Sequence record: MW741821.1
Source: Escherichia phage vB_EcoP_DE5
Length of the DNA: 64,000 nucleotides
Reading direction: 5' to 3' (one strand)
Under the pieces are notes generated by a model. The model saw nothing but the letters and a program-made list of their open reading frames with translations. It was not told where the DNA came from and made no database searches. Of this stretch, positions 33,459-61,313 are shown in pieces. The position numbers and the translations under genes were made by a program. Numbering within the stretch: the stretch's first letter is position 1; each line of letters begins with the position of its first letter.

Positions 33459-33467
33459 GCCAGTGTG
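33459..33467 (+). promoter_or_regulatory. TAATGTATA promoter-like motif (candidate phage-sigma promoter)
   Basis: Exact TAATGTATA 43 nt upstream of the 33510 start codon, just after a terminator. Confidence 0.5.
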
Positions 33468-33509
33468 TAATGTATATTCTTTGTCTACATATAACAAGGA
33501 GGACAACCT

Positions 33510-34262
33510 ATGGCAATGCCAGATGTTCAATACCCCATCAATACCTATGGGTGGCTAAAGAAGGCCGTGGCCCTCTGGGCAGATAGGGACGATGACGAAT
33601 TTGTTAATCAAATTCCAAACTTTATTAACTTTGCAGAGAAAGAGATTTATCGTAACTTACGTATCCCTCCTCTGGAAAAAGAAGTGTATTTAGATATTAA
33701 AGATGGAGTAGCTTACATTCCTCCTGATTACTTAGAAGCTCAATGGATGATGAGAGCCAAAGATGGTACAATCTTCCAAGTAACATCTCCTGAAGAGATT
33801 AGCTATCGTAGACAGCATGGAACAATTAACCCATCTCATTGGAATAACCAACCTGTTAATTTTGCTCGTTTCGGTAGTCGTTTCATTTTCTACCCTAGCA
33901 TTGAAGCAGATACTCCTGTTTATCCTGATGATGGAAGTCCTTTGATTCCAGCAGAAAACTCAGTAATTCTTAGCTATTATGCAGATCCACCGGAATTCCA
34001 TGAAGATACAGATACTAGTACTATTCTCACTATCGCACCAGAGCTTCTTCTGTATTTCACCCTACGTCATGCTTGTCTGTTTGTTCAAGATGATAATGGA
34101 GTTCAGAAATGGTCCGCATTAGGAAAAGCTATCCTTGATGAAATGGTAGAGCAGAATAAGAAACAAGAGTACTCAGGTTCACCTATCGCAATTCCGAATA
34201 ACATGACTCGACTTCAGAGCAGCTTGCCTGATATTTATGGTATTCGTACTTCTCGTGTATAA
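33510..34262 (+). CDS. virion structural protein (possible head-tail adaptor)
   Basis: First gene after capsid terminator and promoter motif; positional inference. Confidence 0.4.
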   Translation: MAMPDVQYPINTYGWLKKAVALWADRDDDEFVNQIPNFINFAEKEIYRNLRIPPLEKEVYLDIKDGVAYIPPDYLEAQWMMRAKDGTIFQVTSPEEISYRRQHGTINPSHWNNQPVNFARFGSRFIFYPSIEADTPVYPDDGSPLIPAENSVILSYYADPPEFHEDTDTSTILTIAPELLLYFTLRHACLFVQDDNGVQKWSALGKAILDEMVEQNKKQEYSGSPIAIPNNMTRLQSSLPDIYGIRTSRV

Positions 34263-34271
34263 GGAGATAAT

Positions 34272-37049
34272 ATGATCGTTTATAATAACCAAGCACCTGA
34301 TGCAGTGAATAACGTTGGGCAGTTTGGTGCTACTGAAGGCTCTATCGGAGCTTACAAGCAAGCGGCAGAATATGCAGCTGACTCTAAATATTGGGCACTG
34401 TTAGCAGAATCTAAGTTTGGTACAATTGATGATTTAATTGCTGAAGTAGAACGTCTGTATCAACAGGGTGTTCTGATGAAGCAAGACATTGAAGATCTTA
34501 AGCAGGACTTTAAAGATCAAGATGCTCGTCTGATGAGCTTGATTGCTCAGACTAATGCGGCAGTATCTGATGCAAATAACGCAGTCGCCCTGATTAACCA
34601 AAAACTCATTGAAGTCCAGAAGCAGCTTGATGTTCTGTTAGGAATGTCTGTTGATGTAACAACCCTCCCTCCGGGAACTCCGGCTACTGGTTCTTTTAAT
34701 CCTAACACTGGTGTAATCTCTTTAGGTATTCCAGAAGGTGATCCCGGAAAAGATGGTTCTGTTAAGGATTTGGATACAGCACCTACTGGTGTTCCAGAGC
34801 TAGGTGATTTAGGTTTCTATGTTGACAAAGATGACAACACCGTCCACAAAACTACTCTAGATAACATTGCTAACTTAATCCCATCTGTTCGTTCTGTATC
34901 TATTAACGGAGGTCCAGCTCTTGATGGAGAGGTTGCTCTAACACTTAACAAAGAGACGGTAGGTTTAGGAAATGTTCTGAACGTTGCTCAGTACAGTCGT
35001 CAAGAGATTAATGACAAATTTGACAAAACTACCAAGACATACCAATCAAAAGCAGAAGCTGATGCTGATGCTCAGTATCGTCAAGTAGGTGAGAAAGTTT
35101 TAGTTTGGGAAGCTACTAAGTATGAATTCTATACTGTTGCTGCTAACAAGACATTAACTCCTGTTAAAACTGAAGGTAGAATCCTTACTGTTAACTCTCG
35201 TTCTCCAGACTCAAGTGGTAACATTGATATCACGATTCCAACAGGAAACCCGTCTCTGTATCTTGGTGAGATGGTGATGTTCCCTTATGACCCAGCTAAG
35301 AATATCTCATATCCGGGGGTTCTCCCTGCTGATGGTCGTCTGGTATCAAAAGAGTCTGCTCTAGATTTAGGTCCATCACTTGTTAGTGGTCAGCTTCCTG
35401 TGGTCTCTGAAACAGAGTGGCAGGCTGGTGCTCGTCAGTATTTCTCTTGGGGTAAGTTAGCAGATGGAGTCACTGATGCAGATTCTACTAACTTTATAAG
35501 TATCCGACTCCCTGACTGGACTGGTGGTGAAGCTATCAGATCTCCTGATTCAGATAAGGATGCTAATTACAAGGGTCGTGTTCAATCTCAGATTCCTTAC
35601 ATTGTAACCGTAAACGGAAAAGCTCCTGATGATGCTAATGGTAACGTAGTTCTCACAGCTGCTAATGTTGGTGCAGCAGCGTCCGGAGCAAATTCAGATA
35701 TCACCTCACTCAGTGGACTAACTACTCCCTTATCTGTCACTCAGGGTGGTACAGGTGTTACTGATATAGGAGGTTTGCGTAGAGCGGCATTGGTTCAGGG
35801 TGTAGAATGTAATGACCAAACAGGACCAGATAGCTACAACAGTTTCCACTCCCCTAATACTCAATATGCATGGAAGATAACCAACTCTGGTGTGGCTCAA
35901 ACAATTAAAGTTTCCGATGGGTCTGCTGTTCCTATACCTATAGGTTCTGGGGGTACAGGGGCTACCTCTGCTTACGATGCTCGTATTTCTTTAGGTTTGG
36001 GCAGATTCCGGGAAGAGGGTGTGGAAACTAAAACCTACTCCCCTGATTTTGGAACGTACATATACATCAATGATACATCTTGGGGTTGCTATAACACGAC
36101 GAGAGGTACAGTACCTTTAGGAACTGTTCAAGGGGGTACTGGAGCAATAACAGAAGCTGGGGCTCGTGTTAATCTGAAAGTAGATAAACTTGTTCAGAGT
36201 TCAACTGACACTAAACTTTTAGATGGTTCAGGAGATCACACATTCTTTATAGCTGGGGATGATTGGGGGTATTTCAATAATTCAGATTCTTCCAGAATTG
36301 CCCTACCGGTAATAAGTGGTGGTACAGGAGGGAAGACTCCAGAAGAAGGCTGTGAAAAGTTAGCGGCAATGCATTATCAGCATAGTCAATCAACATACTA
36401 TGGTAGTGATGCTTTGCCGACCGGTATTGGGTTCTACAGTCAAGACACTTCACCATTCCCTGGCGGTAACGGAGGCCCTTACTCATATGCAGAAATAATG
36501 ACTATTGCTGAAGGTGGTCGTGGAGGTAACTGGTCTCAAATAGGTTTCTCTACTATTACGAACCAAGCCCCTCGTTATAGACAAAGGACTAGTGACCCTT
36601 CTTTAATCACAAACTGGCGTGACTTCTTAATAAGAGATTTGAACACTACCGTAGATGTTAATGGTTTTGTTAAGATTGCATCACCTATAGTCAAACTAAA
36701 ATCTGATGGTTCTTCTGAAGTTAATGACCAAGCCCAAGGAGTAACAACCGAAAGGCTAGATGTTGGTGTTTACAAGATATCTGGGACTTTAGGGTTTAAC
36801 TCGGATGCATCTTGGGGTGGTATCGAAGGTGGTTTTTCTATTCCACAAAACTCCAATGGTTTACCTCTTCTTTGGGTTGACTTTGAAGTTGATGAAGAAG
36901 GTGATATTACTCTGAAAACTTACCATCGGACTCATGAGGGAGTTCCTTCTTTTGCTAGTAATGTAATAGAGGGTGTGGCAGATGGGGAACCTATCGATAT
37001 CCCTGTTGGAAGATGGATTGATCTTCGTGTTGAAATGCCTTCTAAATGA
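34272..37049 (+). CDS. tail fiber protein with repeated GGTG(A)..A..AR.NLGL motifs
   Basis: Repeats SGGTGATSAYDARISLGLG, VQGGTGAITEAGARVNLKV, ISGGTGGKTPEEG resemble the phage tail-fiber repeat. Confidence 0.6.
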   Translation: MIVYNNQAPDAVNNVGQFGATEGSIGAYKQAAEYAADSKYWALLAESKFGTIDDLIAEVERLYQQGVLMKQDIEDLKQDFKDQDARLMSLIAQTNAAVSDANNAVALINQKLIEVQKQLDVLLGMSVDVTTLPPGTPATGSFNPNTGVISLGIPEGDPGKDGSVKDLDTAPTGVPELGDLGFYVDKDDNTVHKTTLDNIANLIPSVRSVSINGGPALDGEVALTLNKETVGLGNVLNVAQYSRQEINDKFDKTTKTYQSKAEADADAQYRQVGEKVLVWEATKYEFYTVAANKTLTPVKTEGRILTVNSRSPDSSGNIDITIPTGNPSLYLGEMVMFPYDPAKNISYPGVLPADGRLVSKESALDLGPSLVSGQLPVVSETEWQAGARQYFSWGKLADGVTDADSTNFISIRLPDWTGGEAIRSPDSDKDANYKGRVQSQIPYIVTVNGKAPDDANGNVVLTAANVGAAASGANSDITSLSGLTTPLSVTQGGTGVTDIGGLRRAALVQGVECNDQTGPDSYNSFHSPNTQYAWKITNSGVAQTIKVSDGSAVPIPIGSGGTGATSAYDARISLGLGRFREEGVETKTYSPDFGTYIYINDTSWGCYNTTRGTVPLGTVQGGTGAITEAGARVNLKVDKLVQSSTDTKLLDGSGDHTFFIAGDDWGYFNNSDSSRIALPVISGGTGGKTPEEGCEKLAAMHYQHSQSTYYGSDALPTGIGFYSQDTSPFPGGNGGPYSYAEIMTIAEGGRGGNWSQIGFSTITNQAPRYRQRTSDPSLITNWRDFLIRDLNTTVDVNGFVKIASPIVKLKSDGSSEVNDQAQGVTTERLDVGVYKISGTLGFNSDASWGGIEGGFSIPQNSNGLPLLWVDFEVDEEGDITLKTYHRTHEGVPSFASNVIEGVADGEPIDIPVGRWIDLRVEMPSK

Positions 37050-37089
37050 AACAAGAATGCTCCCTTCGGGGAGCTTTAAGGAGAAATAA

Positions 37090-39282
37090 ATGTCTAGAGA
37101 ATTAATGCCCAAATCTGGCATAATGATGCCTCACGTAGTTGTGACCAGAGATGCGGCTGTTGTTGGTGTTTCTACAGTAGATGGACAGGCCGGGGCTATT
37201 GACCTCACTGGAAAGTATTTACAGAAAACCGATGCGGCTGCTACATATCAGACTAAAACAGAGGGAGCATCTAAAGACTACGTATTAGATTCAATTCAAC
37301 CTCTTATGTCTAGTGCTCTGTTCCGAGAAGATCCTTGGGTTGTGAACGACACACCTTTCCGCTCTACTGGAGCTAACGGTGTAGAGTCAGTGGATATGAT
37401 GAAGGTCACTCCTGATAACTCAATTAAGATTGGTAGTTATGCTTCTTCCGTTCAAGGTGTAGAGATTCACTCTGCTGGTCGTCTTCAGGTTGTTGACCAG
37501 AATGATTCTGGAGTAGAAACTAAGTATCCAGTTTATTCTAAACGCTACCGCCCAGAGATTGAAGATTTACCTTTTGCTGCGATTGGTTCTTATGTTAAAG
37601 ACTCCAAAGGTCGTACTGTTGGGGTTACTCGTACAGGGATTAACTCTGATATCAAACAGCTCACGCAGAAGGTGACTTTCACTCAACCAGTTACTGTTCC
37701 TGATGCAGTTGGAGACTATGATGCAGTTACTTTGAGACAGCTTCGTAATAGTGGTGGTGGTTCTGGTGGTCCTGGTGGTCCTACAATGAGTGGCATTTCT
37801 AACTTTGGGATTGGGGATTTTCATTTACGTGATAGTCGTGCTTTCATCCCAGCTTTTGAGGTGGTGTCTGATGGTCAACTCCTTGAGCGTGCTGCCTATC
37901 CTGACTTATGGGCGTACGCTCAACTTCTTACACCCATCTCTGATTCAGAGTGGCTTGCTAATGTAGAAAATAGGGGTAAATATTCTACAGGTGATGGTTC
38001 TACGACCTTCCGTGTCCCAGACCGAAATGGTGTTCAGAGTGGGTCTGTTCCGGGACTGTTTGGTCGCGGTGACGGTGGGGATAGTGCTCTAAATGGGATA
38101 GTGCGTAGCAACGCCGCGCCGAACATTACTGGTGCTCTGGGTGCATCCATGACTACCCTGTACGATGCTCCAGATACAACAGGTACGGGTGCAATAGTTC
38201 CAGCCCCTATAGTTATAACCGAATATAAATTAGATAGTACGGGTACTGCAAGACTAAACTACAGGCTCAACCTTAATATTGATGCCAGCCTATCCAATGC
38301 GGCATACGGTCGTGACGGCACCGCAGAGGTCCGACCCAATGCTTTCACCGGGGTCTGGACTATTCGTGCTCATGGTGGATTTGTTGCTGCTAATACTTCT
38401 TGGTCTGTTATCAATAGTGACACCGCCCGGCCTTCGAATGGAACGAAAGTTTCCAGTGGGTCGGTTGTCTCTGAGTATAGAATCGGTTCAGAGGTGGAAG
38501 CTTCTACTACCCTCAAAACTGATGCCTACATCAACGGAGCTTACTATGGAATCATTGACGTCTACAATAAAACTAAAGGAGTTACCAAGCAGTTAGCTTT
38601 CGACGATTCTGGTACACTGAATTCTGATAGGTATGTTGCTAGATTTGGCACTTTGATGTCTTGGAGTGAAACAGGAGCTAGGAAAGGAACATTCTCTATG
38701 GATAACCAAGGGATAGGGTCTAACTACTCATTCAACTCTATACTAAGTGCATCACAAGCATCCAATGGAGGGTACAAGACTACAACTCACGTTGGTATGA
38801 TTCACAATGACGCCGGAACTTTTGCCGACTCTTGCTGGCACGTTGCAGGGGATGAAAATAACCAATATGGTTGTCGTCTAACCCTTCGACCAAACAGGAA
38901 TGAGATTTTCTATTATACTTGGCAACCCAGCTCTACTGGAACATACACTCTTGCTCTGAATCCTGTGTCAGATGAAAGATTAAAACATGATATCCAAGAT
39001 GTATCTCCTGAGAAAGCTATCAAGGCTATCAAAGGGTTGGATTTCAAATCATTTGTGTATAACAACGATGAACAAGGAAGAACTCGTCGTGGTATTATCG
39101 CACAGCAAGCAGAAAAGGTAGAACCTCTTTATGTTAAGACTCGTAGGTTCCATGACAACGATGGTGTAGAGCAAGAACAGAAAGAGCTAGACTCAGCTCC
39201 TATGCTCCTTGATACTATGCAGGTTGTTCAAGACCTTCTGAAACGTATTGAAGTTCTGGAATCGAAGTTAGCAGAGAAGTAA
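37090..39282 (+). CDS. tailspike/tail fiber with C-terminal intramolecular chaperone (peptidase S74-like) domain
   Basis: C-terminal ERLKHDIQDVSPEKAIKAIKGLDFKSFVY...GIIAQQAEKV...LESKLAEK matches the auto-cleaving chaperone domain of endosialidase-type tailspikes. Confidence 0.7.
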   Translation: MSRELMPKSGIMMPHVVVTRDAAVVGVSTVDGQAGAIDLTGKYLQKTDAAATYQTKTEGASKDYVLDSIQPLMSSALFREDPWVVNDTPFRSTGANGVESVDMMKVTPDNSIKIGSYASSVQGVEIHSAGRLQVVDQNDSGVETKYPVYSKRYRPEIEDLPFAAIGSYVKDSKGRTVGVTRTGINSDIKQLTQKVTFTQPVTVPDAVGDYDAVTLRQLRNSGGGSGGPGGPTMSGISNFGIGDFHLRDSRAFIPAFEVVSDGQLLERAAYPDLWAYAQLLTPISDSEWLANVENRGKYSTGDGSTTFRVPDRNGVQSGSVPGLFGRGDGGDSALNGIVRSNAAPNITGALGASMTTLYDAPDTTGTGAIVPAPIVITEYKLDSTGTARLNYRLNLNIDASLSNAAYGRDGTAEVRPNAFTGVWTIRAHGGFVAANTSWSVINSDTARPSNGTKVSSGSVVSEYRIGSEVEASTTLKTDAYINGAYYGIIDVYNKTKGVTKQLAFDDSGTLNSDRYVARFGTLMSWSETGARKGTFSMDNQGIGSNYSFNSILSASQASNGGYKTTTHVGMIHNDAGTFADSCWHVAGDENNQYGCRLTLRPNRNEIFYYTWQPSSTGTYTLALNPVSDERLKHDIQDVSPEKAIKAIKGLDFKSFVYNNDEQGRTRRGIIAQQAEKVEPLYVKTRRFHDNDGVEQEQKELDSAPMLLDTMQVVQDLLKRIEVLESKLAEK

Positions 39283-39374
39283 GATAAGCCCCTTCGGGGG
39301 CTTTAGTAGTAAGTACCCTTAGTAAGTAATGAAACTAATATATCCCAAGAGGTTAATATATAGGAGACACTCAA

Positions 39375-39593
39375 ATGAAAATGATGAAACAAGCTGCATA
39401 TGGTTTAATATGTTTAGGCGCAGGTGTTGTGGTATCCACCGCAGTTCCTGTAGGCGCAGTTCATCCATTAGTAACTGTCCCTGCTCCAGTAGAGAAGCTC
39501 AGCTCTCAATGTAAGCAGAGAACAATTCAAAATAACTTAGTTGTTATTTGCCCTGATGCTGAATCTAACGCTCTGAGAAAGATACTACCTTAA
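39375..39593 (+). CDS. small membrane protein, candidate holin
   Basis: 72 aa with one hydrophobic segment (AAYGLICLGAGVVVSTAV) directly upstream of the lysozyme gene; positional inference. Confidence 0.3.
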   Translation: MKMMKQAAYGLICLGAGVVVSTAVPVGAVHPLVTVPAPVEKLSSQCKQRTIQNNLVVICPDAESNALRKILP

Positions 39594-39621
39594 TTTAAAG
39601 GGACTACAAAGGAGGTTAGAA

Positions 39622-40113
39622 ATGGATAACGTCGCATTGCCACCTGTACAACTAAACTTAAGCCCAGCTGGAATGGAATTCATCATGAAGCATGAGGGTA
39701 TGAGAACAAAGGCTTATAAAGATTCCGCAGGTATCTGGACTATATGTGTAGGGGCTACGCGCGATATGAATGGTTATCCGGTTAGACAAGGATTAACGTA
39801 TTCTATAGAGGATTGTCTAGCTCTGCTAGATAGAGACACACAAGACTCTGTTCGTGCTACTCAGAAGAACATAAAGGTTCCTTTACTAGTTCATGAGTTT
39901 GATGCCCTCACTTCTTTCAACTTCAATGTTGGCAGTGGGGCTTTGAGCACATCTAAGTTAAGGAAGGTAATCAATGGAGATGTTAAGGGGGATGTTTATT
40001 CCGAATTTCTTCGTTGGGATAAAATAACGGTCAAGGGAGAGAAGCAGAGAAGTCAGGGTCTTCATAATAGAAGAGTTGCAGAAGCTAATCTTTACACCGA
40101 AGGTAAATATTAA
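39622..40113 (+). CDS. lysozyme (GH24, T4-lysozyme-like) endolysin
   Basis: FIMKHEGMRTKAYKDSAGIWTICVGATRD signature of phage lysozyme. Confidence 0.75.
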   Translation: MDNVALPPVQLNLSPAGMEFIMKHEGMRTKAYKDSAGIWTICVGATRDMNGYPVRQGLTYSIEDCLALLDRDTQDSVRATQKNIKVPLLVHEFDALTSFNFNVGSGALSTSKLRKVINGDVKGDVYSEFLRWDKITVKGEKQRSQGLHNRRVAEANLYTEGKY

Positions 40114-40125
40114 TGGAGGTGCCTT

Positions 40126-40929: not shown

Positions 40930-40938
40930 GGAGGAATT

Positions 40939-43956: not shown

Positions 43957-43960
43957 CAAC

Positions 43961-43989: not shown

Positions 43990-43999
43990 GGAGGAACTT

Positions 44000-48862: not shown

Positions 48863-50518
48863 ATGCAACAGACAACTTACGCTCAGGTCAGAAGTCGTGA
48901 CCCGAGAAATACTTTCTATGGTGTTAATCCGGGAGCGGCTTCGGCCTCTCCTTATATGGCTAGACCAACTCAGACAGCAGATATTTCTATGTATCAACGT
49001 CCTGCTGTACCTTCATCTCTTGCGGGTCTTGTCTCTCAGGCAGAAGAAGATCAGAATGCTATGGTTAATCCGGGATTCCAGCAACGTCTTATGGAACAGC
49101 AGAATCAAGGGACTCCTACCAGTCTTCAGGGTATTGATATTGGAGCACCGGCCCCTGTAGCGTCTAACCCTAACCTATCCACTGATCAAGGTTTACAGGA
49201 TGCTGGGCTTATGCCTAGTGACCCTCTTCCGGTAACACCTCCTACTAAACCGTTAGAAGCTGGTCCTATGGAGTTTACTCCTTCTCAGGTGGAACAGGCA
49301 CAAGGTGTGATTAATACTCTTGCTCAAGGACAAGATACTGGTGATGGAATGGCTGCTGCTACTCGTGCTAAAGATCAGGAACGTGTTAACAATGATATCT
49401 TGCAAGTTGCTAAAGCTAAAGACCCTTCAGAAGCTTGGAACAAATTACAGAAAGAACCGTTCTATCAGAACTCTAGTTTCTACACAGGTTTGATGGGTGT
49501 AGGTCTTTCCATTATGTCAGGTAAGTCTCCTATTGAAGCTTTCCAGATTGGTCAGGGAATGGCTAATCAAGATGAGACTAAGAAGCAACTGGAAGCTAAC
49601 CGTGATGCTCTGATTGAACAAGGCTTCTCTCAAGACTCGATTGCAGCTGCTATTGCTAACGGAGACCCATCTCTACTGAAGATGAGAGCTGTAGACCCTG
49701 CTCAGAAAGAAGCGTTGTATGCTGCTCGTGAAGAACGACAAAATGCTGAATGGGATAGACGTCAACAGATTCAAGAGCAAACTATGCGTGAGCGTGCTGA
49801 TGAAACTCGTCGTGCCGCTGAAGAAAGAGCTAACATGAACTTTGAACGTCAGAAAGAGTTGATTGGTTATCGTGATAAGGTTAAGGCTGAACGTGCTGAA
49901 CAAGCTGCTCAGAGTTTTAACTTTAACCCGAAAGAAGTTCGTCTTGCTCAGAATACAGCTGAAGGTACGGTTGCTAAGCAGTGGGCAGAGAAAGGTGGCC
50001 TGTTTAACCAGTCTAACAAAGACTTGGATTTGGCTGATAAGGCTGTTAAGGATAAAGACTATCAGACAGCTCGTTCTGCTTACATGCAGGCTATCATGAA
50101 CTCCGCAAGGGCTGAAATCGGTGCTACTCGTTCTCTTACCGAAGAAGACTTGGGGCACTTTGCAGAAGACCCATCAATCTTCATTCGTGTTGGCAACAAG
50201 TTTGCACTGAAATCTGGATGGCGTCCTACTGATTCTGCTCTTGCTTATGCTCGTAAGCAAGCTAACGTTGGTCACACCTCTGCAATGAAAGGTGTTGCTG
50301 ATGCTAAGAGAGCTACGATTGAAGCTTACATCGGTTCTGGTATGGATAAGAAGAGAGCTACTGCATTGGTTAACCGTGCAATCCCTTCTGGTGGTTTCTA
50401 TGACCCTCTAGGTGTTTTCTCTGAACAAGCAGAAGAAGCAGTTGGTGGTGCAGCAACCAATCCTAAGCTCAATGGTGCTTTATCAGCTGTCGAAGACACT
50501 AGCTGGTTTACTCAATAA
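48863..50518 (+). CDS. internal virion protein (551 aa)
   Basis: ORF in late operon. Confidence 0.45.
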   Translation: MQQTTYAQVRSRDPRNTFYGVNPGAASASPYMARPTQTADISMYQRPAVPSSLAGLVSQAEEDQNAMVNPGFQQRLMEQQNQGTPTSLQGIDIGAPAPVASNPNLSTDQGLQDAGLMPSDPLPVTPPTKPLEAGPMEFTPSQVEQAQGVINTLAQGQDTGDGMAAATRAKDQERVNNDILQVAKAKDPSEAWNKLQKEPFYQNSSFYTGLMGVGLSIMSGKSPIEAFQIGQGMANQDETKKQLEANRDALIEQGFSQDSIAAAIANGDPSLLKMRAVDPAQKEALYAAREERQNAEWDRRQQIQEQTMRERADETRRAAEERANMNFERQKELIGYRDKVKAERAEQAAQSFNFNPKEVRLAQNTAEGTVAKQWAEKGGLFNQSNKDLDLADKAVKDKDYQTARSAYMQAIMNSARAEIGATRSLTEEDLGHFAEDPSIFIRVGNKFALKSGWRPTDSALAYARKQANVGHTSAMKGVADAKRATIEAYIGSGMDKKRATALVNRAIPSGGFYDPLGVFSEQAEEAVGGAATNPKLNGALSAVEDTSWFTQ

Positions 50519-50538
50519 GACCTAAGTCCTGCCTTCTA

Positions 50539-50547
50539 TAATGTATA
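50539..50547 (+). promoter_or_regulatory. TAATGTATA promoter-like motif
   Basis: Exact motif 39 nt upstream of ATG 50586. Confidence 0.5.
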
Positions 50548-50585
50548 TAGGGGGTAGGACATTTTTATTTATAAAAGGAGACGTT

Positions 50586-53500
50586 ATGGCTAACATTAAA
50601 CCGTGGGAAGAAGCTTCCAAAGCTCCTGCGTATCTGAATGCCTCTCCGGAGCAACAAGCTCAAATGAGAGAACAATATAAGGCAGCAGGTGGCTCTATTC
50701 CTGAGGAACAGCCAGTAGCACAACCACAACAAGAAGAACGTGGTGCTATAGGTGAGTTTGCTCAAGGTGTGTCAAATGCTCTTCAATCTGGTGGTGCAAA
50801 TATTGCAGCTAGTGCTGCTAAAGGTATTGGTGGTTTAGTTGAGATTGGTGAGAATCTAGCTGGAGCACAAACTAGTTATGGTAAGCGTATCCAAGAGAAC
50901 TCTCAGAATCTTCTGAAAGAACGTATGGATAAGATTGAGGATGGGATTGGTAAAACTGTAGGTCAGTATGCTGGCGTTGCTGGTGATATTGGTATGACTG
51001 TTGCTAACCCATTGGCTGCTGCTGCTATCATCGCAGGTCGTGAGACAGGTCGTGCATATGCAGACCAAACCCCTGAAGAGGGGGAAGATAAATCTATTCT
51101 AGATGCAGCCTTAGTTGGTGGTGCTAACTATGCGGCTCAGAGAATCCTTCCGGGCGCTGTTGGTACAGCTGAGTCCACACTTGGACGTATTGGTCAGAAC
51201 GTTGCTACTAACGCAGTGGCTGGTGCTAAAGGTGGCGCTCTTGTAGGTGCTGCTGAAGCTCAGAACAAGCATGGAGATGATACAACCTTTGCTGATGTAT
51301 TAGAAGGTGCTATCGAAGAAGGTGCTATGGGTGCTGCATTCGGTGGTGCAGTTGGTGGGGTTCATGGTTTGATTAGCCGTCCGGATTCTACTGTCTTCAA
51401 GAACACTCCAGAGTATGCGAAGACTGATATTGCTGCTGATGATGAACTAATTCGTAGTGCTAAGAATATTGATGAACTGAAAGAAGCTTACTCTAAAGCT
51501 GAAACTGCTAACGCTGCTTCTGCTCTGAACCTTCTGGATGAGAATGGATTCCGTATTACAGATGCTGTTGCTGTAGACTCTCCTGCTGCTCAGCGTATTC
51601 TTAATACTGACCAAGCTCGTGCTGAGAAAGCTGCTTCCGTTCAGAAAGAACATTCCAACATTCCGGGCCTCAACCCTTTAGCTTCTCCTGCTAAGACTCG
51701 TGGTAAAGCATTCGCTGATAACGAGCACAACCAGAAGCAGGCTGTTGCTATGAAGGATGCAATGGCTGACTACACCAAAGACAACACGAAAGCTCTTACA
51801 GATGTTCTAGATAATCTAGATCGTGAATTAACCTCTCTCCGAGCTTCTGGTGATTTTACTGGTAGTCCGATTGATATTAAGAACCGTACACAAGCCGACC
51901 GTGATTTCATTGATGCTTACAAGACTTTCTACAATGAAGCAAATCGATTCAAAGCTCGTGATGGTGAAGACTTTAATAACTTTGTAGAGAAAGCTGCTGA
52001 ACTACAGAAGATGGCTGATAATGTTTCTCCAGAGATGAAGAAAGCTATCGGTGGGTTGAAGAAACTGAAAGGCATGCCTGAAGGTTTTAATCCTATCCAA
52101 GATGCTTACACTCTGAACAATACGGCTAAGTTTATGAGTAACCAAGATCGTGGTTGGACTTCCCTGACTGATGATGGATTCCGTGAGGCTTCTTCACCTA
52201 GTCTGGTAATGAACACTCTCGGTGCTGCTAAGTATGCTCTGAATCGCTTCTCTTCTCAGCGTGCTCGCTCTCAACGTGTTAAGCAACAAGAATCTAACAG
52301 TGAAGCTATCCGCTCTCTAGCTCGCGGTGATTTGGAAGTTGCTCGTGCTAAGTCGACTGCTGATGAAGCTCGTGCTAAGATGGAAGAAGAACCAGTTGTT
52401 GATGACGTTAAATTTAAGACGCAAAATGACGCGGAAACCGAACCGGTTCGGGAACCTTCTTCTAGTACTGTGATAGAAGAAAATCTTCCTTCTTCTACTC
52501 CTCAAGAAACTCCTCTTACAGCTCGTGATTTAGTTGCGCAAAGACGTGCTATCCGTCAGGCTGAACAGCGTCGCGCTGAAGAAGAGGCAGCTGCTGCTCA
52601 AGAAGCTCCAGTCGAACAAGCTCCACAGGCTGAACCTCTCCCTGCTCGTAACCCTTTAGAGGAGCGTCGTGCAATGGAACAGCAACGTGCTCAAGAAGAG
52701 GCCGCACAGGCTCCAGAACCCACTGTAGAGGAACCAACAGTCAAAGCTGAGCCATTACCTGCCCGTGCTCCTAAAGCTCCTAAGGAAGCTGTACAGGACG
52801 TTAAACCGGCAAGTGGTGTAGAACGTTTAGCTGCTATGTCTAGTGCTGCTCGTCAGGCTACTAAAGATCGTGCAGAACGTTTTGCTCGTTCTCTGTACTC
52901 TAAGGCTGCTAAGGCTAAAGCTACTGCTGAAAACTTCTTGGCTTATAAAGGTGACCCCAAGGAATTGATGCGTCGTATTCGTCAGGAAGATAATGCTATC
53001 AACACGGAACGTCATGAAGAAATGGCTCGTAACCAGCTGGCTTCTCAGCAAGGTATTGCTACTGCTAAGAACAACACTGTACGAACTAATTTTGCTGAAT
53101 GGGTTAAGGAACGTGGTCTGCCAGAAGACATTGCTACTAAGGCATTACGTGCTGAAGAGAAAGGTTTAGGTGGGAACGTAACTAACTTGGATAGTCTGAA
53201 ACGTCGTGCTGAAAGGTTGTATCAGAAGCAGCGTGAGGATGAGTTTGATAGACTGTATCAACAAGCTCTAGAAGAGAACAAAGCTTTCGATAAGAAAGAT
53301 GCTCCTAAACTGGTTGACCAGAAGAAAGAGCTTCAGTCTGAGATTGATGCTTTGATTGATTCAGAACCTTTACGTCCTGCTCAGAAAGATGCTATGCGTA
53401 AGCTGATGAATGACTTTGTAGATGGGAAGTTTAAATCTTCAGAGAAGGCTGGTAGGGAAGAGGCTTTGGAAGTTGGTCAGATGAAGGATATTTGGGATGG

Positions 53501-55007
53501 GTTTATTAACACCTATAACAGAGAAGTGAATACCTTCAACAAAGCTAACAAGAACTCTCAGTACGAAGCTGCTGCTAAGCATTTACAGGCTCGTGAAGAA
53601 CGTCTTGCTACACTCAGGAAAAAGGCTCAGGCTCGTTCGGATGCTAAAGCTGCTGTTGAGAATGAACGTAAAACTCTAGAGGCTATTGCAGCTCAGAAGA
53701 GTGAGATTGAGAAGATGATGGAAGGTTTACCTAAACCTGTTCGTGAGGCTCAGGAATCTCGTACATTGAAACAGTTGGCTGCTCACCACGATAAGAACTC
53801 TCCAGTTCCTCCAGAGAAGTTCCGTAGTTACATTGAACGTATCCATAACGCCGAGTCAGACTACCTTGATCGTCAGCGTCGTTTAACTGATGCAGAGGAA
53901 GATGCTCGTCAGGCTAAGTGGAACAAGATGTATGAGCAAGCGGAAGAGATGAACCGCAAGTTTGATGTGGACAAGAGAGTTAAGCGCAGTGAAGAGCTTA
54001 AAGCGGCCCAAGAGCGTGAGAATGATCTTATGGCAGTACAACGTCAACGTGATGACATTCATCGCCGCCTGATGCGTACTATGGAAGATAAGGGCATATC
54101 TAGAGAGGATGCTGAAGCGTTTGCTGGTTCCTATATGGACAACCGTTATGCACTTCTTGAGAAACCTATGACTCCTACTGAACATCAGAATGCTCGTTCT
54201 CGTATCGAAGCTGATGTTGAGAAGTTCGCTAAGAAGTACGAATCAATGACTCCTATTGAGAAAGAGATTGTTAAGGTTACTGGAGATACTGAAGGTAAGC
54301 TTGATAGCTTGGATTCAGATACTAGGAAGGCTATTGAGGAGGCTCAGAAGGTTGACTCTGATATTAAGAAACTGCAAGAGGAAGAGTTGGAGATGGAGAA
54401 GATTCGTTCTGCTCTGCCTGATGATGAAAGATCTCAAGCAAATTCTGATATCTTGGAAAGCATTAAACAACAGGAAGAGGTCTTTGCTGATAAAGTAGAG
54501 AAAGCTTTCTTGAGTGGGAAGAGCTTGGATGAGTTGGCTAGTGTGGCTGAAGTTTTAGACAGGGTTCATGGTGCAGATAAGGCTGGTAACAACCGTCGCT
54601 TTGTACGTGCATTGCAGACTGCTGCTGAAAACAAGAAGAGGTATGGTGATAATCCAGTAGCTTGGTTTAGTGCTGATGATTACTCTGCCATTGCTAAACT
54701 TGGTGCTTCTTCCGCAGGTGGTAACAAATCCAGAGCACTGGAGAAGATCTTTGGTTCTACAGCTGAACAGGCTAAGAGTAAGTTGCTTGGTAGGGATGAT
54801 GTAGCGAAGATGAGGCGTGTAATTGAAGAGAACCCTGATATTAAGATTCCTTCTTACAAGACAACGAATCGTACTGAGTACTTACAGTTCTTGGAGAAGT
54901 TTAATGACGAAGGGAAGCCTAAGATTAAACGTGGCTCATTGTCAGAGAAGCTTGAACGCAGTAAGCGTCAATCGAGACTCCGTGTAAGAGTTCGACCTAA
55001 GGAGTGA
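50586..55007 (+). CDS. giant internal/ejection-type protein (about 1473 aa)
   Basis: AAGGAG RBS before ATG 50586; long Ala/Glu/Lys/Arg-rich coiled-coil regions; last gene of late operon. Confidence 0.55.
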   Translation: MANIKPWEEASKAPAYLNASPEQQAQMREQYKAAGGSIPEEQPVAQPQQEERGAIGEFAQGVSNALQSGGANIAASAAKGIGGLVEIGENLAGAQTSYGKRIQENSQNLLKERMDKIEDGIGKTVGQYAGVAGDIGMTVANPLAAAAIIAGRETGRAYADQTPEEGEDKSILDAALVGGANYAAQRILPGAVGTAESTLGRIGQNVATNAVAGAKGGALVGAAEAQNKHGDDTTFADVLEGAIEEGAMGAAFGGAVGGVHGLISRPDSTVFKNTPEYAKTDIAADDELIRSAKNIDELKEAYSKAETANAASALNLLDENGFRITDAVAVDSPAAQRILNTDQARAEKAASVQKEHSNIPGLNPLASPAKTRGKAFADNEHNQKQAVAMKDAMADYTKDNTKALTDVLDNLDRELTSLRASGDFTGSPIDIKNRTQADRDFIDAYKTFYNEANRFKARDGEDFNNFVEKAAELQKMADNVSPEMKKAIGGLKKLKGMPEGFNPIQDAYTLNNTAKFMSNQDRGWTSLTDDGFREASSPSLVMNTLGAAKYALNRFSSQRARSQRVKQQESNSEAIRSLARGDLEVARAKSTADEARAKMEEEPVVDDVKFKTQNDAETEPVREPSSSTVIEENLPSSTPQETPLTARDLVAQRRAIRQAEQRRAEEEAAAAQEAPVEQAPQAEPLPARNPLEERRAMEQQRAQEEAAQAPEPTVEEPTVKAEPLPARAPKAPKEAVQDVKPASGVERLAAMSSAARQATKDRAERFARSLYSKAAKAKATAENFLAYKGDPKELMRRIRQEDNAINTERHEEMARNQLASQQGIATAKNNTVRTNFAEWVKERGLPEDIATKALRAEEKGLGGNVTNLDSLKRRAERLYQKQREDEFDRLYQQALEENKAFDKKDAPKLVDQKKELQSEIDALIDSEPLRPAQKDAMRKLMNDFVDGKFKSSEKAGREEALEVGQMKDIWDGFINTYNREVNTFNKANKNSQYEAAAKHLQAREERLATLRKKAQARSDAKAAVENERKTLEAIAAQKSEIEKMMEGLPKPVREAQESRTLKQLAAHHDKNSPVPPEKFRSYIERIHNAESDYLDRQRRLTDAEEDARQAKWNKMYEQAEEMNRKFDVDKRVKRSEELKAAQERENDLMAVQRQRDDIHRRLMRTMEDKGISREDAEAFAGSYMDNRYALLEKPMTPTEHQNARSRIEADVEKFAKKYESMTPIEKEIVKVTGDTEGKLDSLDSDTRKAIEEAQKVDSDIKKLQEEELEMEKIRSALPDDERSQANSDILESIKQQEEVFADKVEKAFLSGKSLDELASVAEVLDRVHGADKAGNNRRFVRALQTAAENKKRYGDNPVAWFSADDYSAIAKLGASSAGGNKSRALEKIFGSTAEQAKSKLLGRDDVAKMRRVIEENPDIKIPSYKTTNRTEYLQFLEKFNDEGKPKIKRGSLSEKLERSKRQSRLRVRVRPKE

Positions 55008-55014
55008 TAAAAGA

Positions 55015-55049
55015 AAAGCCCCAACCGAAAGGAAGGGGCTTTATTTGTT
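55015..55049 (+). terminator. intrinsic terminator ending late operon
   Basis: AAGCCCC...GGGGCTT stem followed by TTTATTTGTTT. Confidence 0.65.
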
Positions 55050-55366
55050 TCTAAGTTTTAAAAACCATCAAATTCGTCATACATCCCAATTCTCTTCAGA
55101 AGTCTGGATGTTCATCTTCAAAGCATCCTGAGATGCCTCCGTAGAACCAATCCGATTTACTGCCAAGAATAACAACTTCTTCATTCATACACCCTCCTAG
55201 ATTGCGTTTATAAAATTAGTAAGTTTCTCTTCACTTTCATCAAAAGCTTTTCCAGCTGCTTCCATCTCCCAAGTATCGGCATTATCAATAAAGCTCTGAG
55301 CTTCTAATAGATCGTGGATTAAGTCGAAGAGTTTATTTTTATCTGCTTGTGTGATCATGTCAGTTC

Positions 55367-55594
55367 CTAGATTAAATCGTAATACTGAATAATGTCAGAG
55401 AGTTTGAACTCTCGAATCTCATCTTTCTCTACATCTATCGCTGTCATAATCCAACAAGGTTTGCCACCGTTATGAAAACGGGAGCTAGCAACGGAGGTTC
55501 GGAGTGGAATAACGGACCGGTCAGCAACCTCGCCTCTCCAATTGCGATAGCGAAAGCGAAGCACTTGTTGCGTAGATTTTTGATCATCACTCAT
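55367..55594 (-). CDS. hypothetical small protein
   Basis: ORF; start chosen at internal Met (MSDDQ) to avoid overlap with HNH gene. Confidence 0.3.
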   Translation of the reverse strand: MSDDQKSTQQVLRFRYRNWRGEVADRSVIPLRTSVASSRFHNGGKPCWIMTAIDVEKDEIREFKLSDIIQYYDLI

Positions 55595-55988
55595 TTCCTT
55601 TTTTGAATTGTTTTCTTGCATCATTCTCTTCTTTTGTTTTAATCTTATGACAAGGGTCTTTACACAGAACCTGAAAACCTTCTTTCTCACACAGAGCACG
55701 AGAGATGATTTCATCCCAAGTTGCTTCATGGTCAAGAGGAACTATAGGCTCTATGTGGTCAATAGCCATATCCTTTACAGGGTGGTCAGAACCACACATG
55801 GCGCACTTAAAGTGCATTGCCAGTCTGCCTGTCTTTGGATTAATCTTTTGCTCTGTCTTGGCGTCTGCTAGTGCATCGAACATTGGCTTCCACTTTCTAG
55901 TCAGAGAACGAATCCCTGACTTGATGAAAGAGTTGTAACGAGCTTCAGTCCACATTCCAGAGCATCTAGTCTTCTCAGCCTTCGCCAT
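55587..55988 (-). CDS. HNH endonuclease
   Basis: HFKCAMCG...IDHIEP...LCKDPCH pattern (Cys pairs, DH, invariant His). Confidence 0.55.
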   Translation of the reverse strand: MAKAEKTRCSGMWTEARYNSFIKSGIRSLTRKWKPMFDALADAKTEQKINPKTGRLAMHFKCAMCGSDHPVKDMAIDHIEPIVPLDHEATWDEIISRALCEKEGFQVLCKDPCHKIKTKEENDARKQFKKGNE

Positions 55989-56176
55989 AACCTACACTCA
56001 TATCATCTTCTTCCCATACACGTTTATCTACTCGGTGTGATACTTTTTCACGTTTTTCTTTAATATAGCGGTTGCCTAATTCGTGGCTATATTTAATACG
56101 CTGCTCTTTACGAGATTCGCGGTTGGAGGAGTTTTCATCATATGAACGATAATCAAATTTACCCATTATAATATCC

Positions 56177-56689
56177 TTATTTTATCCAGTCTCTTTCTAT
56201 ATATGAGGTTGTGAGCTTATATCTCTCTGCTTCAGGTGAGAAGATGACTATCACACTTCCTTTAGTGTTACCACTAACACTTTGCTGTGTATCTGCTCTT
56301 GTGAAACTCACACGACCACCTGTTATGAAAACAATCTCATCAGCATGGTTTATACACTTAGTAAACCACTTAACAGAAGTATCAGCTGGCAGCAATAAAA
56401 CTGTACCAACTTTAAGTTTCTTGTTTTTAATTGCCAAGTCAATCCAAGGAGTTATGTCTGAATATGGAGGATTACACCAAGTGTAAGTGTTTCTGAACTC
56501 AGAGAAATCATAAGTTAAAGAATCCATTTCCTCTGTTATATATTTTTCTAGTAGATGATTCTTGTCACTAGACGCTATATCGCAGGAGAATTCAAACCTT
56601 GTGTTAAAGAAATCAAACAGCCATTTAGGAGTTTGCCATAAATCTCTAATGTCTTCTGGGGTATTACTAGATCTATAATCTGTTACCAT
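56177..56689 (-). CDS. DNA N6-adenine methyltransferase (phage Dam-type)
   Basis: Catalytic NPPY motif in YTWCNPPYSD context. Confidence 0.7.
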   Translation of the reverse strand: MVTDYRSSNTPEDIRDLWQTPKWLFDFFNTRFEFSCDIASSDKNHLLEKYITEEMDSLTYDFSEFRNTYTWCNPPYSDITPWIDLAIKNKKLKVGTVLLLPADTSVKWFTKCINHADEIVFITGGRVSFTRADTQQSVSGNTKGSVIVIFSPEAERYKLTTSYIERDWIK

Positions 56690-57525
56690 TCTCTATCCAA
56701 CCATGTCCAATCAAATAAATCTTCCGGAGTCTGACCAACAAAGAGCAGCCTAGCATTCTCAAGCATCTTCTCTTCATCTTCAGTATCGAACTTCTTATAA
56801 TATTCCATTCGTACTATATGATACATGGTCCACTTATCTGTAACATCAGCTAGTAATTTAGCTGCTGCCTTCTTCCCTATACCTTGACGTCGAAGCTGAA
56901 GTTTACCACCCCACATAACCTCTTTACGTTCCCCACATCCGGGGATATTATCTGTACCATCTCCAATCAACATCTGATAGAAGAAGTTTTGCCATGAAAC
57001 TAAATCAGATACATAGTGAGGAGGAACTTCTTTCTGTCTTTCTCCACAAGCCCAACGGTAGTGCCATCCGGGAGTTATCAACAAATCCTTGTCTCTAGTA
57101 CAGATGATAGTGTTCTTATCCCTACGTTGCCTTTCAGCTAGTGCATCATCAGCCTCTCTCCCAAATACATCTATGTATTCATATTTACCTTTAATATAAT
57201 CACCAACATTTTGCCAGTGAAAAGGTCTCTCTCCGGGAGGTCTATTTGCTTTATAGTCTTGCTGCTTAGCAACATCAAAACGGAAGTTACCACCTTCGCT
57301 GAAGTAGAACACAACCTTGCTGCAACCTGAGCGAGCAATGATTGTATCTATCTTGTACTGAAGTCGTTCAATCATGAAATTGTAATCAACTGGAACACGT
57401 CCTGTGTCAAGAAAGGGATGCTCCTGAGTAAGAGCACCCACTTCATATCGAAGAACGTCAGCATCCACTATAGCAACTTCAGGGAGCTTAACTTCTTCCA
57501 TAAATATCATCCTGAGCTTGTGCAA
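56683..57525 (-). CDS. 5'-3' exonuclease / flap endonuclease (RNase H-like)
   Basis: IGDGTDNIPGCG motif characteristic of phage 5'-3' exonucleases. Confidence 0.6.
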   Translation of the reverse strand: MHKLRMIFMEEVKLPEVAIVDADVLRYEVGALTQEHPFLDTGRVPVDYNFMIERLQYKIDTIIARSGCSKVVFYFSEGGNFRFDVAKQQDYKANRPPGERPFHWQNVGDYIKGKYEYIDVFGREADDALAERQRRDKNTIICTRDKDLLITPGWHYRWACGERQKEVPPHYVSDLVSWQNFFYQMLIGDGTDNIPGCGERKEVMWGGKLQLRRQGIGKKAAAKLLADVTDKWTMYHIVRMEYYKKFDTEDEEKMLENARLLFVGQTPEDLFDWTWLDREW

Positions 57526-58377
57526 TAATCCAATCTAGATCTGATACTGCTGATTCAATAGTTGAGTCATTAAACAGTAGATATGTTTTTCTCTGTTCGC
57601 CTTCAATATATGAGCGAGAGTCTCCATCAAAAGAGCAACCATCTCTAAGAACTTGGACAACTTGGACATGGAAATTCTTTTCTAGTTCTCGTACCTCTGC
57701 ATCAAAACCTCCGTCAGTAAACACGACAATATCATCCTGACCTAGCCCTTCTTGTTTGATGCTTTTTACAGCAAGATCCCCCATATGATTGTTGCCAAAC
57801 ATAGGTTTTAAGAAGTCTTCACTTGTAGAAATCATCAAATCTCTTACAGACTTCCCTCCCCATTCTGGTCTAGGTTTTTCTTTCCATTCACGGTCTTCAT
57901 AGCGTGCTAGAAAGTTTTCTAGAGGTATGCCTAGTGCAGCAGCAGCTACCTTGTACATTGGCTCCTTGAAGGATTTGGTTGAATAATTGTGATGGTATGA
58001 ATGGGCATTAACCCAAGCATTGGCTATCGTATCTTTACCACAACCCGGAGGCCCATTAAGAATTACTACTAAAGGCTTATAATGGGAATCTCCCACCATA
58101 TTGGTCAGTGCTGGATTGCCTTGAGATTCCATTTCTAATTGCTCCGTGTGGTCATGTGAGTAGTCTATTGGAGAAGTTTTGTTACCAGTAACTTTAGGTA
58201 AAATCGCTCTAGTTGTTTCTACGTATTTACCGCCATCAATATTGATTTGAAACTCTACAAGCTCATTCTGTAACTCATATCCTGATAAGTTGGATAGCTC
58301 CTCCAACTCATCTCTGACGAAATTTAAATGTTTGATTTTAATTGCAAGAGCTTTCTTTAAAGCTTTTACCTCTTCAT

Positions 58378-58387
<10 letters not shown>
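57488..58387 (-). CDS. P-loop nucleotide/nucleoside kinase-like protein (start probably internal)
   Basis: Walker A LVVILNGPPGCGKDT. Confidence 0.5.
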
Positions 58388-59873
<1,486 letters not shown>

Positions 59874-59874
<1 letters not shown>

Positions 59875-60233
59875 TATTCTATTCCACGCTCTTTCAGAGC
59901 TTCTAACAATCCATTGTGATTAGCAGCACATTCTGTGTACTGGTCCTGATACCACTCCAACGTAGTGGCTAGTGCTTTTCCTTGAGCACTTTCTAAAAGA
60001 GGTAGGTCAACCCTACATTCAGCTTTTAGGTTTGTTGGTAAGGGCATTGATTGCCTGCTGTTGTCGCTCATTGAACAAGCTGACATACTCATCACTAGCG
60101 CAGACATTATAAAAAACTGGTTTAGTTTTCTCATAATGCATCTCTTTATAAACGGTTTCCGTGTTCTTCTTCCAGTTAGATAAACCGGTAAGAACTCTCT
60201 GAGCAACTTCATCAGCTGCCCTACTTCTTTCAA
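59874..60233 (-). CDS. putative o-spanin (outer-membrane lipoprotein), start probably internal
   Basis: Internal Met followed by signal and lipobox-like MSAC; gene begins inside the i-spanin ORF in another frame. Confidence 0.4.
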
Positions 60234-60393
60234 TCTCTAACTCTTGTTGATGCTTTTCTTTATCCAGATTGTTACTGTCTGTTCTGTACTCATTAAACTT
60301 CATGCCACCAAAGAATACAAGAGCTGAAAAGATAACAAATCCTAGATTATCACTTAAAGTGCTTTGCATATTGACTCCAACGAAAAAAGCCAC
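60019..60393 (-). CDS. putative i-spanin
   Basis: N-terminal TM segment LGFVIFSALVFFGG then coiled-coil periplasmic domain; overlapped by lipoprotein ORF. Confidence 0.45.
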   Translation of the reverse strand: MAFFVGVNMQSTLSDNLGFVIFSALVFFGGMKFNEYRTDSNNLDKEKHQQELEIERSRAADEVAQRVLTGLSNWKKNTETVYKEMHYEKTKPVFYNVCASDEYVSLFNERQQQAINALTNKPKS

Positions 60394-60395
60394 CC
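60373..60395 (-). terminator. intrinsic terminator after SSB gene
   Basis: AGCCACC-UCCG-GGUGGCU hairpin followed by six U on minus strand. Confidence 0.6.
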
Positions 60396-60426
60396 GGAGG
60401 TGGCTAAGCTATAACAAGGAGAGTTA

Positions 60427-61173
60427 TTAGAATGGGCTATCGTTGTCGTCTTCGTAAGTAGAAGCAGGCTCTTTATCAATCGTAGGGATTGAAGGAGTAG
60501 CTTCTTTCTGTTCTGTTTCAGAAGCACGAGTAATTTCACGACCAGCCAGAGGCATGTTCTTAGCGTCATTAGCTTGAGTAAGCAGGTTGCGCTGGAACGG
60601 GAACATCAGTTGATAGGATGCTACGTTCTCATCGGTTTCAGCATATGGTTCGAAGAATACCAGAGGACTACGAGCTTCACCAACTGCTGCACGATATTTG
60701 GTTGGGATTGGAGAAATGGTCTTGATGGAGTTTTTAACTTCACCAGCTTTGTTAGTATAAGAGTTAACCAGAATGTTAACAGGCTGACCTAACAGAACAT
60801 CCTTGAACCAAGACAGATCACCTTTCAGTGCTTGAATACTTGGGTCAATCATCTTGCAAAGATCAAGAATACCAGAGTTCTTAGCTCGTGGGTTTACATC
60901 ATAGCTCTTGAACTGGCAAGCCGGACGTGGTTCTAATGCCTTACCATCGGAATCTTTACCAGTAGCATCAACACCAATCAGCTCGAAAGCCAAATCCATA
61001 CGGAAAGCTGGATTCTTAGGAGTTACTGCTTTGGTCTTCGGGTCAATCCAAGGGTCACGATTGTGAACACCCAAACCTACTACACGAACGATACGTGCTT
61101 CGTATTCACCATCAGGGATTACATCGTAGTTGGATTTACGAGAAGCAGTTGCGATAGTTGGAATCATAGACAT
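60427..61173 (-). CDS. single-stranded DNA-binding protein (T7 gp2.5-like architecture)
   Basis: Acidic C-terminal tail ending in aromatic residue (EDDNDSPF); position among replication/recombination genes. Confidence 0.45.
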   Translation of the reverse strand: MSMIPTIATASRKSNYDVIPDGEYEARIVRVVGLGVHNRDPWIDPKTKAVTPKNPAFRMDLAFELIGVDATGKDSDGKALEPRPACQFKSYDVNPRAKNSGILDLCKMIDPSIQALKGDLSWFKDVLLGQPVNILVNSYTNKAGEVKNSIKTISPIPTKYRAAVGEARSPLVFFEPYAETDENVASYQLMFPFQRNLLTQANDAKNMPLAGREITRASETEQKEATPSIPTIDKEPASTYEDDNDSPF

Positions 61174-61232
61174 ATTTTAATTTCCTTATTTAATTTGAAA
61201 GATTGTTGCTCTCTTTGAGCGGTTATGTATAG

Positions 61233-61241
61233 TATACATTA
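61233..61241 (-). promoter_or_regulatory. TAATGTATA promoter-like motif oriented toward SSB operon
   Basis: Reverse complement TATACATTA, 59 nt upstream of SSB start; part of palindrome ATGTATA-G-TATACAT. Confidence 0.45.
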
Positions 61242-61304
61242 CGCTTATACCGATAAGAGTACTATATAATATAAGTATCTTTGGTAGTAGATATAACACA
61301 CTAG

Positions 61305-61313
61305 TAATGTATA
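61305..61313 (+). promoter_or_regulatory. TAATGTATA promoter-like motif, plus orientation
   Basis: Exact motif in a 400-nt intergenic region with no plus-strand gene downstream. Confidence 0.35.

Follow-up and report, generated by a model that had tools for sequence, protein, structure and literature searches.

What does a phage promoter do when it faces no gene? The question arises in the 64,000-nucleotide (nt) stretch of DNA from Escherichia phage vB_EcoP_DE5 (MW741821.1) that we analysed, here called the window, where one copy of the 9-mer TAATGTATA, at 61305-61313 on the plus strand, points into a conserved block that holds no conserved plus-strand open reading frame (ORF). This copy, divergent from the neighbouring homologue of promoter P40, is called Pdiv below. 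Our reading, to which we give a probability of about 45%, is that Pdiv may be a seventh promoter of the P68-type middle class, dependent on the phage sigma factor gp36 and its co-activator gp79, and that it would make an undescribed structured non-coding RNA (ncRNA) of ~157 nt, one domain of which is modular and variable. This copy and the block that it faces are the only element described here that lies outside the literature, and they are offered as a lead, not yet as a result. The features of the locus and of its regulators are as follows.

1144-1392, minus strand: gp79 homologue of 82 amino acids (aa), matching chain G of PDB 9m7y over all 82 residues (E 1.1e-51)
58767-59414, minus strand: gp36 sigma gene, residues 2-215 matching residues 1-214 of chain F of PDB 9m7y (E 1.6e-144)
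60427-61173, minus strand: gene 40 homologue, 100% identical to phi32_40, the first gene downstream of P40
61233-61241, minus strand: P40 homologue, middle class; phiEco32 counterpart 36631-36639 (-), predicted start ~61226
61283-61292, plus strand: GGTAGTAGAT, the -35-type element of Pdiv, at -37 to -28 as in P68
61305-61313, plus strand: Pdiv, TAATGTATA; phiEco32 counterpart 36704-36712, predicted start A61320
61320-61476, plus strand: conserved non-coding block, from alignments, with no conserved ORF; the candidate Pdiv RNA, ~157 nt
61320-61336, plus strand: H1, a hairpin of 6 bp at the 5' end predicted for the Pdiv transcript, from RNAalifold and pair counts
61388-61402, plus strand: invariant hairpin GCAGG-AGMCA-CCTGC
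61410-61475, both strands: long imperfect hairpin, followed on the minus strand by UUUUUAUC and on the plus strand only by UUUAAAAG

The motif and its phage sigma factor

We scanned the whole window for TAATGTATA and found four exact copies, at 33468-33476 (+), 50539-50547 (+), 61233-61241 (-) and 61305-61313 (+), which confirmed the positions given in an earlier note made from the sequence alone. The expected number was 0.60, and none of 100 dinucleotide shuffles reached four. All four copies were intergenic, inside the part of the window, at most 10.7%, without any ORF of at least 50 aa on the locally dominant strand, so that such a placement has a chance probability of ~1e-4 or less; the intergenic enrichment that the earlier note had required of a full scan was present. 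Variants with one mismatch were not enriched in the window (21 observed, 21.4 expected), which assigns the signal to the exact 9-mer in spacers. The same note had described two copies in opposite orientations in the 61.2-61.3 kb spacer, one of them within a palindrome. This description also held, with the copy at 61233 (-) contained in a palindrome at 61222-61242 that is near-perfect only. A special role for this P40 palindrome was considered and rejected: it is lost in the 4E8/ECBP2 subgroup, and GTATAC is self-complementary anyway.

Judged by its sequence, the source of the window is a Kuravirus, a phiEco32-like coliphage. The segment at 58-62.5 kb showed 96-99% identity to ~50 Escherichia phages of this genus, including TH06, SU10 and phiEco32, and the window runs along the phiEco32 record from ~51,653, across the record ends, to ~39,159, with the homologues of P58 and P68 beyond its limits. 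The phiEco32 promoters of the middle and late classes were reportedly mapped by Pavlova et al. in 2012, as cited by later papers. According to these papers, six phiEco32 promoters are used by RNA polymerase (RNAP) with gp36 and share a single common element, tAATGTAtA (PMC8948821, PMC4331800, SU10 genome paper); they precede genes 6, 13 and 26 (late) and 40, 58 and 68 (middle), and their start sites lie 6-8 bp 3' of the element (PMC8948821, PMC4331800). The first part of the PMC8948821 supplement holds primer and core-gene tables and no list of promoter sequences. The window motif agrees with the published element, and its copies stand at the phiEco32 positions of P13, P26 and P40. Together with the gp36 match, this shows that the earlier note was correct in pointing to a promoter class of phiEco32-like phages that depends on a phage sigma factor.

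The gene at 58767-59414 (-), which had been described as a sigma-70-family gene, proved to match the gp36 chain of 9m7y; its match to Pfam Sigma70_r2 was weak (E 0.002, below the curated cut-off). The cognate sigma gp36 and the co-activator gp79 are both encoded in the window. PDB 9m7y, solved by cryo-EM, shows E. coli RNAP together with gp36, gp79 and the phiEco32 promoter P68; in it, the N-terminal domain of gp36 makes base-specific contacts at A-14, A-13, T-12 and G-11, with melting from -11, and its sigma4-like C-terminal domain contacts -37G and -34A (PMC12276001). The phiEco32 gp79 inhibits sigma70 transcription and activates gp36-dependent transcription; it stimulates P26 and P68 3-4-fold, and P26 is transcribed in vitro by RNAP-gp36, 4-fold more with gp79 (PMC12276001). 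[quoted passage not shown] This class is already known from phiEco32, whose genome is almost identical, and the motif finding is therefore of low novelty. The window shares with phiEco32 the same element (tAATGTAtA), sigma factor, gp79 and genome positions of P6, P13, P26 and P40; no difference was seen at these four sites, whereas the site at 61305 (+) lies beyond the published six and yet carries the -35 element of P68.

Under the mechanism that the literature gives for phiEco32, applied to the window by homology, strong host sigma70 promoters would drive the early genes, with gp79 among the products. gp79 would then displace sigma70 region 4 and stabilise the gp36 holoenzyme, so that the core would be switched to gp36. 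The N-terminal domain of gp36 would read AATG at -14 to -11 and open the DNA from -11, its C-terminal domain would touch -37 and -34, and the holoenzyme would fire the TAATGTATA promoters, with a start ~7 nt past the last A of the motif. P40 heads the block that holds the sigma gene itself. In our own reading, which goes beyond the published scheme, Pdiv would fire with middle kinetics like P68, starting at A61320 and yielding an ncRNA of ~157 nt protected by its 5' hairpin; this candidate RNA would end at, or read through, the long hairpin at 61410-61475.

Pdiv and the conserved block at 61320-61476

Pdiv lies outside the published list of six promoters (PMC8948821, PMC4331800, SU10 genome paper) and is not at a mapped promoter position. 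No conserved plus-strand ORF was found downstream of it, in line with the earlier observation that this copy faces no plus-strand gene. Its 9-mer was intact in 36 of 37 related loci, taken from GenBank phages, IMG/VR and metagenomes and including Suseptimavirus genomes in which the spacer is only ~75% identical. The upstream element GGTAGTAGAT supplies -37G and -34A, the bases contacted by the C-terminal domain of gp36 in the P68 structure. The 77.5-kb genome of phiEco32 has just two copies of this 10-mer, at P68 and at Pdiv, each 13 nt upstream of AATGTATA. Position -34 is A at all five window sites, and -37 is G at P6 and at 61305 (+) and A at P13, P26 and P40. By sequence, Pdiv is closer than P40 to the structurally characterised P68.

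A search of IMG/VR with the bipartite pattern recovered both P68 and Pdiv in four of five kuravirus genomes; in the fifth, in which the Pdiv site reads GGTAGTATAT, it recovered P68 only. Run against IMG/VR, this promoter pattern and a shorter pattern of the hairpin returned only the same kuraviruses and three chance matches in unrelated contigs. P40 and Pdiv point away from each other, and their starts are predicted at 61226 and 61320. ES17-type phages have an insertion of ~130 bp between the two and keep both, which argues that they act independently. The conservation of Pdiv (36/37), together with an architecture identical to that of P68, argues that it is not a degenerate relic. Our literature search found no kuravirus transcriptome.

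The block was present in all 37 Kuravirus/Suseptimavirus-type loci examined. The intergenic spacer used as a query matched 98 phage records, and the gene 40 protein at an identity of at least 80% was likewise found in 98 records. In KBNP1711 the block's 3' domain was 98% identical to that of the window, compared with 62% at the four-fold sites of the adjacent gene 40. The middle module, between H1 and the invariant hairpin, exists in two unrelated versions among the relatives.

Several observations speak for RNA structure and for the plus strand. H1 begins at the predicted +1, and its pairing was kept through changes between UA and GC at one pair, between CG, UA and AU at another, and between GC and GU at a third, so that two of its six pairs carry double changes. 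The alternative (type-B) middle module contributed one further pair that changes between CG and UA. The covariation score of the block was 0.051, compared with 0.025 in shuffles, and none of 500 shuffles reached it, but 26 of the 33 consensus pairs were invariant. The plus strand folded more stably (-45.8 kcal/mol, z -2.37) than the minus strand (-35.3 kcal/mol, z -1.47). Only the plus strand can form the G.U pairs, of which two, in the long hairpin, are invariant.

We also searched for relatives and partners of the block. At the gathering threshold, Rfam 15 returned only a tRNA-Arg elsewhere in the window, and in a permissive search the best E value in 61100-61700 was 3.2. A BLAST search with the block, at E up to 10, found no match in 5,426 E. 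coli genomes, which indicates that the block is neither a host mimic nor derived from a prophage. A target search with RNAduplex against 146 translation-initiation regions performed no better than with shuffled RNA, and no complementarity to the block of at least 12 nt was found anywhere in the window. A plus-strand peptide encoded in the block was rejected: two ORFs with TTG starts, of 32 and 21 aa, are destroyed by the alternative middle module. On the minus strand, a strongly hydrophobic 35-aa ORF, MVTYILYFLAFLGIIFLSIILEFGLSKLVNYLGNK, a homologue of phi32_41, lies at 61489-61596, converging on the block and ending directly ahead of the long hairpin. It is missing in ECBP2-type, Bas88-type and Paul-type phages, which retain Pdiv and the block.

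Alternative explanations for Pdiv

It is hardly credible that the motif copies are chance AT-rich sequence or host sigma70 -10-like elements. The motif does contain TATA, its one-mismatch variants occur at chance frequency, and annotations of relatives based on BPROM place sigma70 promoters in some of the spacers concerned. However, the excess of exact copies and their intergenic placement, the match of their positions to experimentally mapped gp36 promoters and the base-specific gp36 contacts seen by cryo-EM all speak for a phage promoter; sigma70-type matches in the 61-kb spacer stand at shuffle level, and the published in vitro transcription with the gp36 holoenzyme contradicts a host or chance origin. 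A more serious alternative, which we nevertheless consider unlikely, is that Pdiv is non-productive, being an accessory holoenzyme site that tunes P40, a by-product or a relic, with the block conserved as the terminator or 3' region of the minus-strand operon. Several points weigh against the ncRNA reading here. A U run follows the long hairpin only on the minus strand, so the hairpin is likely to be primarily the terminator of the upstream minus-strand operon, and, with no U tract after it on the plus strand, it is uncertain where the candidate RNA would have its 3' end. This terminator, or a DNA-level site, could account for the extreme conservation of 61382-61476. Most helices are invariant and therefore carry no covariation information, and a non-circular test of substitutions against the pairs of the window's own minimum free energy (MFE) structure was not significant (p 0.18); an apparent avoidance of helices by substitutions (p 4e-5) was obtained on the RNAalifold structure, is circular and was not relied on. 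The published maps give only six promoters, and the unreported status of Pdiv rests on later papers repeating that list. In addition, one metagenome contig, ERZ1034915, carries a change of G-11 to A in Pdiv and reads TAATATATA. A non-productive site, however, would leave unexplained the full P68-type architecture of -35 and -10 elements at exact spacing and the survival of both promoters, intact, on either side of the ES17-type insertion. It would also leave unexplained the conservation of 61320-61409, which lies beyond the minus-strand terminator, and the compensatory and G.U changes in H1, which are meaningful only in a plus-strand RNA.

Two further accounts accept that Pdiv fires and differ in what its transcript does. 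In one, which we judge quite unlikely, the transcript acts in cis, by antisense or interference on the upstream minus-strand operon including the 35-aa ORF, in the manner of a type I toxin-antitoxin system. The convergent layout, the terminator hairpin in common and the hydrophobic peptide encoded at 61489-61596 fit this account, and the weak plus-strand terminator would permit read-through into antisense territory; yet the ORF is not always paired with Pdiv, as the ECBP2-, Bas88- and Paul-type phages show, and a compensatory 5' hairpin and a conserved internal domain would be unnecessary for simple interference. The likeness to 3'-overlapping type I antitoxin RNAs is one of anatomy only, in the convergence and in the hairpin held in common with the neighbouring operon, and the small ORF is dispensable in relatives. 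At the primary origin of T7, an AT-rich region follows the promoters phi1.1A/B, and Pdiv could by analogy belong to a replication origin, with a transcript into an AT-rich stretch priming or activating DNA synthesis. A stretch of 17-23% GC at 61460-61580 directly follows the block, Pdiv would be of the middle class like replication genes, and it adjoins gene 40, whose homologue is by annotation a single-stranded DNA-binding protein (SSB) in some relatives. The likeness to T7 is again anatomical only, a phage-specific promoter facing an AT-rich stretch. An origin here is very doubtful, because no iterons or other repeats, which might mark an origin, were found, the GC skew gave no origin signal independent of gene orientation, and the AT-rich stretch lacks sequence conservation from one subgroup to another and is in part a small ORF.

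The promoter class itself adds nothing new: it was mapped in 2012, its structure dates from 2025, and the phage in which this was done shares ~96% identity with the present one over the region compared. Its practical value lies in annotation, as automatic annotations mostly miss these promoters or label them sigma70 sites. If Pdiv fires, a conserved gp36-dependent ncRNA would lie beside the operon that encodes the sigma factor itself. An RNA player, or an origin, would then be added to a transcription programme regarded as fully mapped, and the RNA would, to our knowledge, be the first ncRNA shown to depend on a phage-encoded sigma factor.

Other promoters of the window and distant relatives

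The remaining gp36-type promoters of the window and their surroundings are listed here.

25988-26003, plus strand: terminator 5' of P6
26019-26027, plus strand: P6 homologue, late variant TAATGTAGA, with sequence and context as at phiEco32 1677-1685 upstream of gene 6
33413-33436, plus strand: intrinsic terminator after the Ig-domain gene and upstream of P13, a 10-bp GC-rich stem followed by a T run
33445-33453, plus strand: TAAGACCTA, upstream box of P13, at -38 to -30
33468-33476, plus strand: P13 homologue, late, TAATGTATA; phiEco32 9101-9109 upstream of phi32_13, predicted start ~33483
50516-50524, plus strand: TAAGACCTA, upstream box of P26, at -38 to -30
50526-50560, plus strand: terminator-like hairpin enclosing P26, with 15 pairs, 6 of them GC, followed by ATTTTTATTT
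50539-50547, plus strand: P26 homologue, late; phiEco32 26014-26022 upstream of phi32_26, with a 1473-aa gene from 50586

Some details of the earlier description had to be revised. It had placed the motif at a fixed distance, 43 and 39 nt, upstream of the start codons at 33510 and 50586, but these figures mix different reference points: the distance to the ATG is 34 and 39 nt, respectively, from the motif end and 42 and 47 nt from the motif start. The motif had also been placed just downstream of a terminator at both genes, which is so at 33468, after the terminator at 33413-33436, but not at 50539, where the motif lies within the hairpin at 50526-50560. As for its position upstream of late genes, this applies to P13 and P26 and not to the copies at 61233 (-), which precedes a middle gene, and 61305 (+), which precedes none. 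The P6 homologue at 26019, with one mismatch in TAATGTAGA, had been overlooked. With the usual 7-nt spacing, the P6 start, ~26034, would precede the annotated ATG at 26039 by about 5 nt and fall 3' of the AGGAG that goes with it. This leaves either a nearly leaderless P6 mRNA or a true start codon located further downstream.

P13 drives the adaptor/tail gene block from 33510, and the downstream ORF matches Pfam SU10_adaptor. At P26, the motif occupies the loop and 3' arm of the hairpin at 50526-50560 and the predicted start, ~50554, falls in the 3' arm, so P26-initiated transcripts would lack the 5' arm. Read-through transcripts could thus form the terminator, and those initiated at P26 would escape it. 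A mechanical ORF call gave a 1488-aa gene from an ATG at 50541, inside TAATGTATA, whereas homology to phi32_26 puts the start at 50586; an ORF caller that starts gene 26 within the motif is a trap for annotation.

The box TAAGACCTA lies 23 nt upstream of the motif start at both P13 and P26 and has only three copies in the window. The late promoters P13 and P26 thus share TAAGACCTA and the middle-type P68 and Pdiv share GGTAGTAGAT, and these differing upstream boxes might underlie late versus middle timing. At 59478-59495 (-), within a macro-domain gene and 64 nt upstream of the sigma gene start, TAAGACCTA adjoins TAATGTTTA; this pairing of the late-type box with a variant of the motif that has one mismatch, at a spacing that does not fit, is probably due to chance. 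The P40 motif was kept in all 14 relatives examined. In the predicted P40 leader, at 61199-61220 (-), a hairpin GCTC-AAAGA-GAGC within CCGCTCAAAGAGAGCAACAATC was invariant in all aligned relatives despite diverged flanks.

The ORF-poor early region at 20629-24380 contains three near-consensus sigma70 promoters on the minus strand, with first hexamers at 23968, 22019 and 21571. These sites, at 21.5-24.0 kb, have the form TTGACA-N16/17-TATAGT or CATAAT (11/12 matches) and presumably represent the strong early promoters reported in phiEco32 and SU10. A tRNA-Arg(TCT) gene lies in the early region at 14164-14239 (-) and is annotated likewise in phiEco32.

Among distant relatives, Salmonella phage 7-11 resembles the window in having a distantly related phage sigma factor, gp47, and promoters at corresponding positions, one of them ahead of the gene 40 homologue, but differs in its bipartite late-promoter consensus GTAAtg-N16-aCTA and in having no gp79 and no middle class (PMC8948821). 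TAATGTATA is absent from 7-11. In 7-11-like and Privateer-like phages only ~75-100 nt lie upstream of the SSB-like gene, which leaves no room for the Pdiv block. The T4 late promoters offer a further comparison: they have a short, single, AT-rich -10-type element, TATAAATA, read by the truncated phage sigma gp55 on the host core with a co-activator, and gp55 does not contact -35 and requires gp33 and the sliding clamp. Unlike gp55, gp36 touches -37 and -34 through its sigma4-like C-terminal domain and uses gp79. Three IMG/VR contigs (L019-L021) with 67-70% identity in gene 40 carry no TAATGTATA and have a different conserved spacer. Upstream of the gene 40 homologue, this spacer holds a common element, ...GGAAGCATCTAGCAAAGCTAGCATATCAAAGCTAAGCTAAGCTATATGCTTTATCCATT..., with inverted repeats, which is possibly a promoter or regulatory module of their own.

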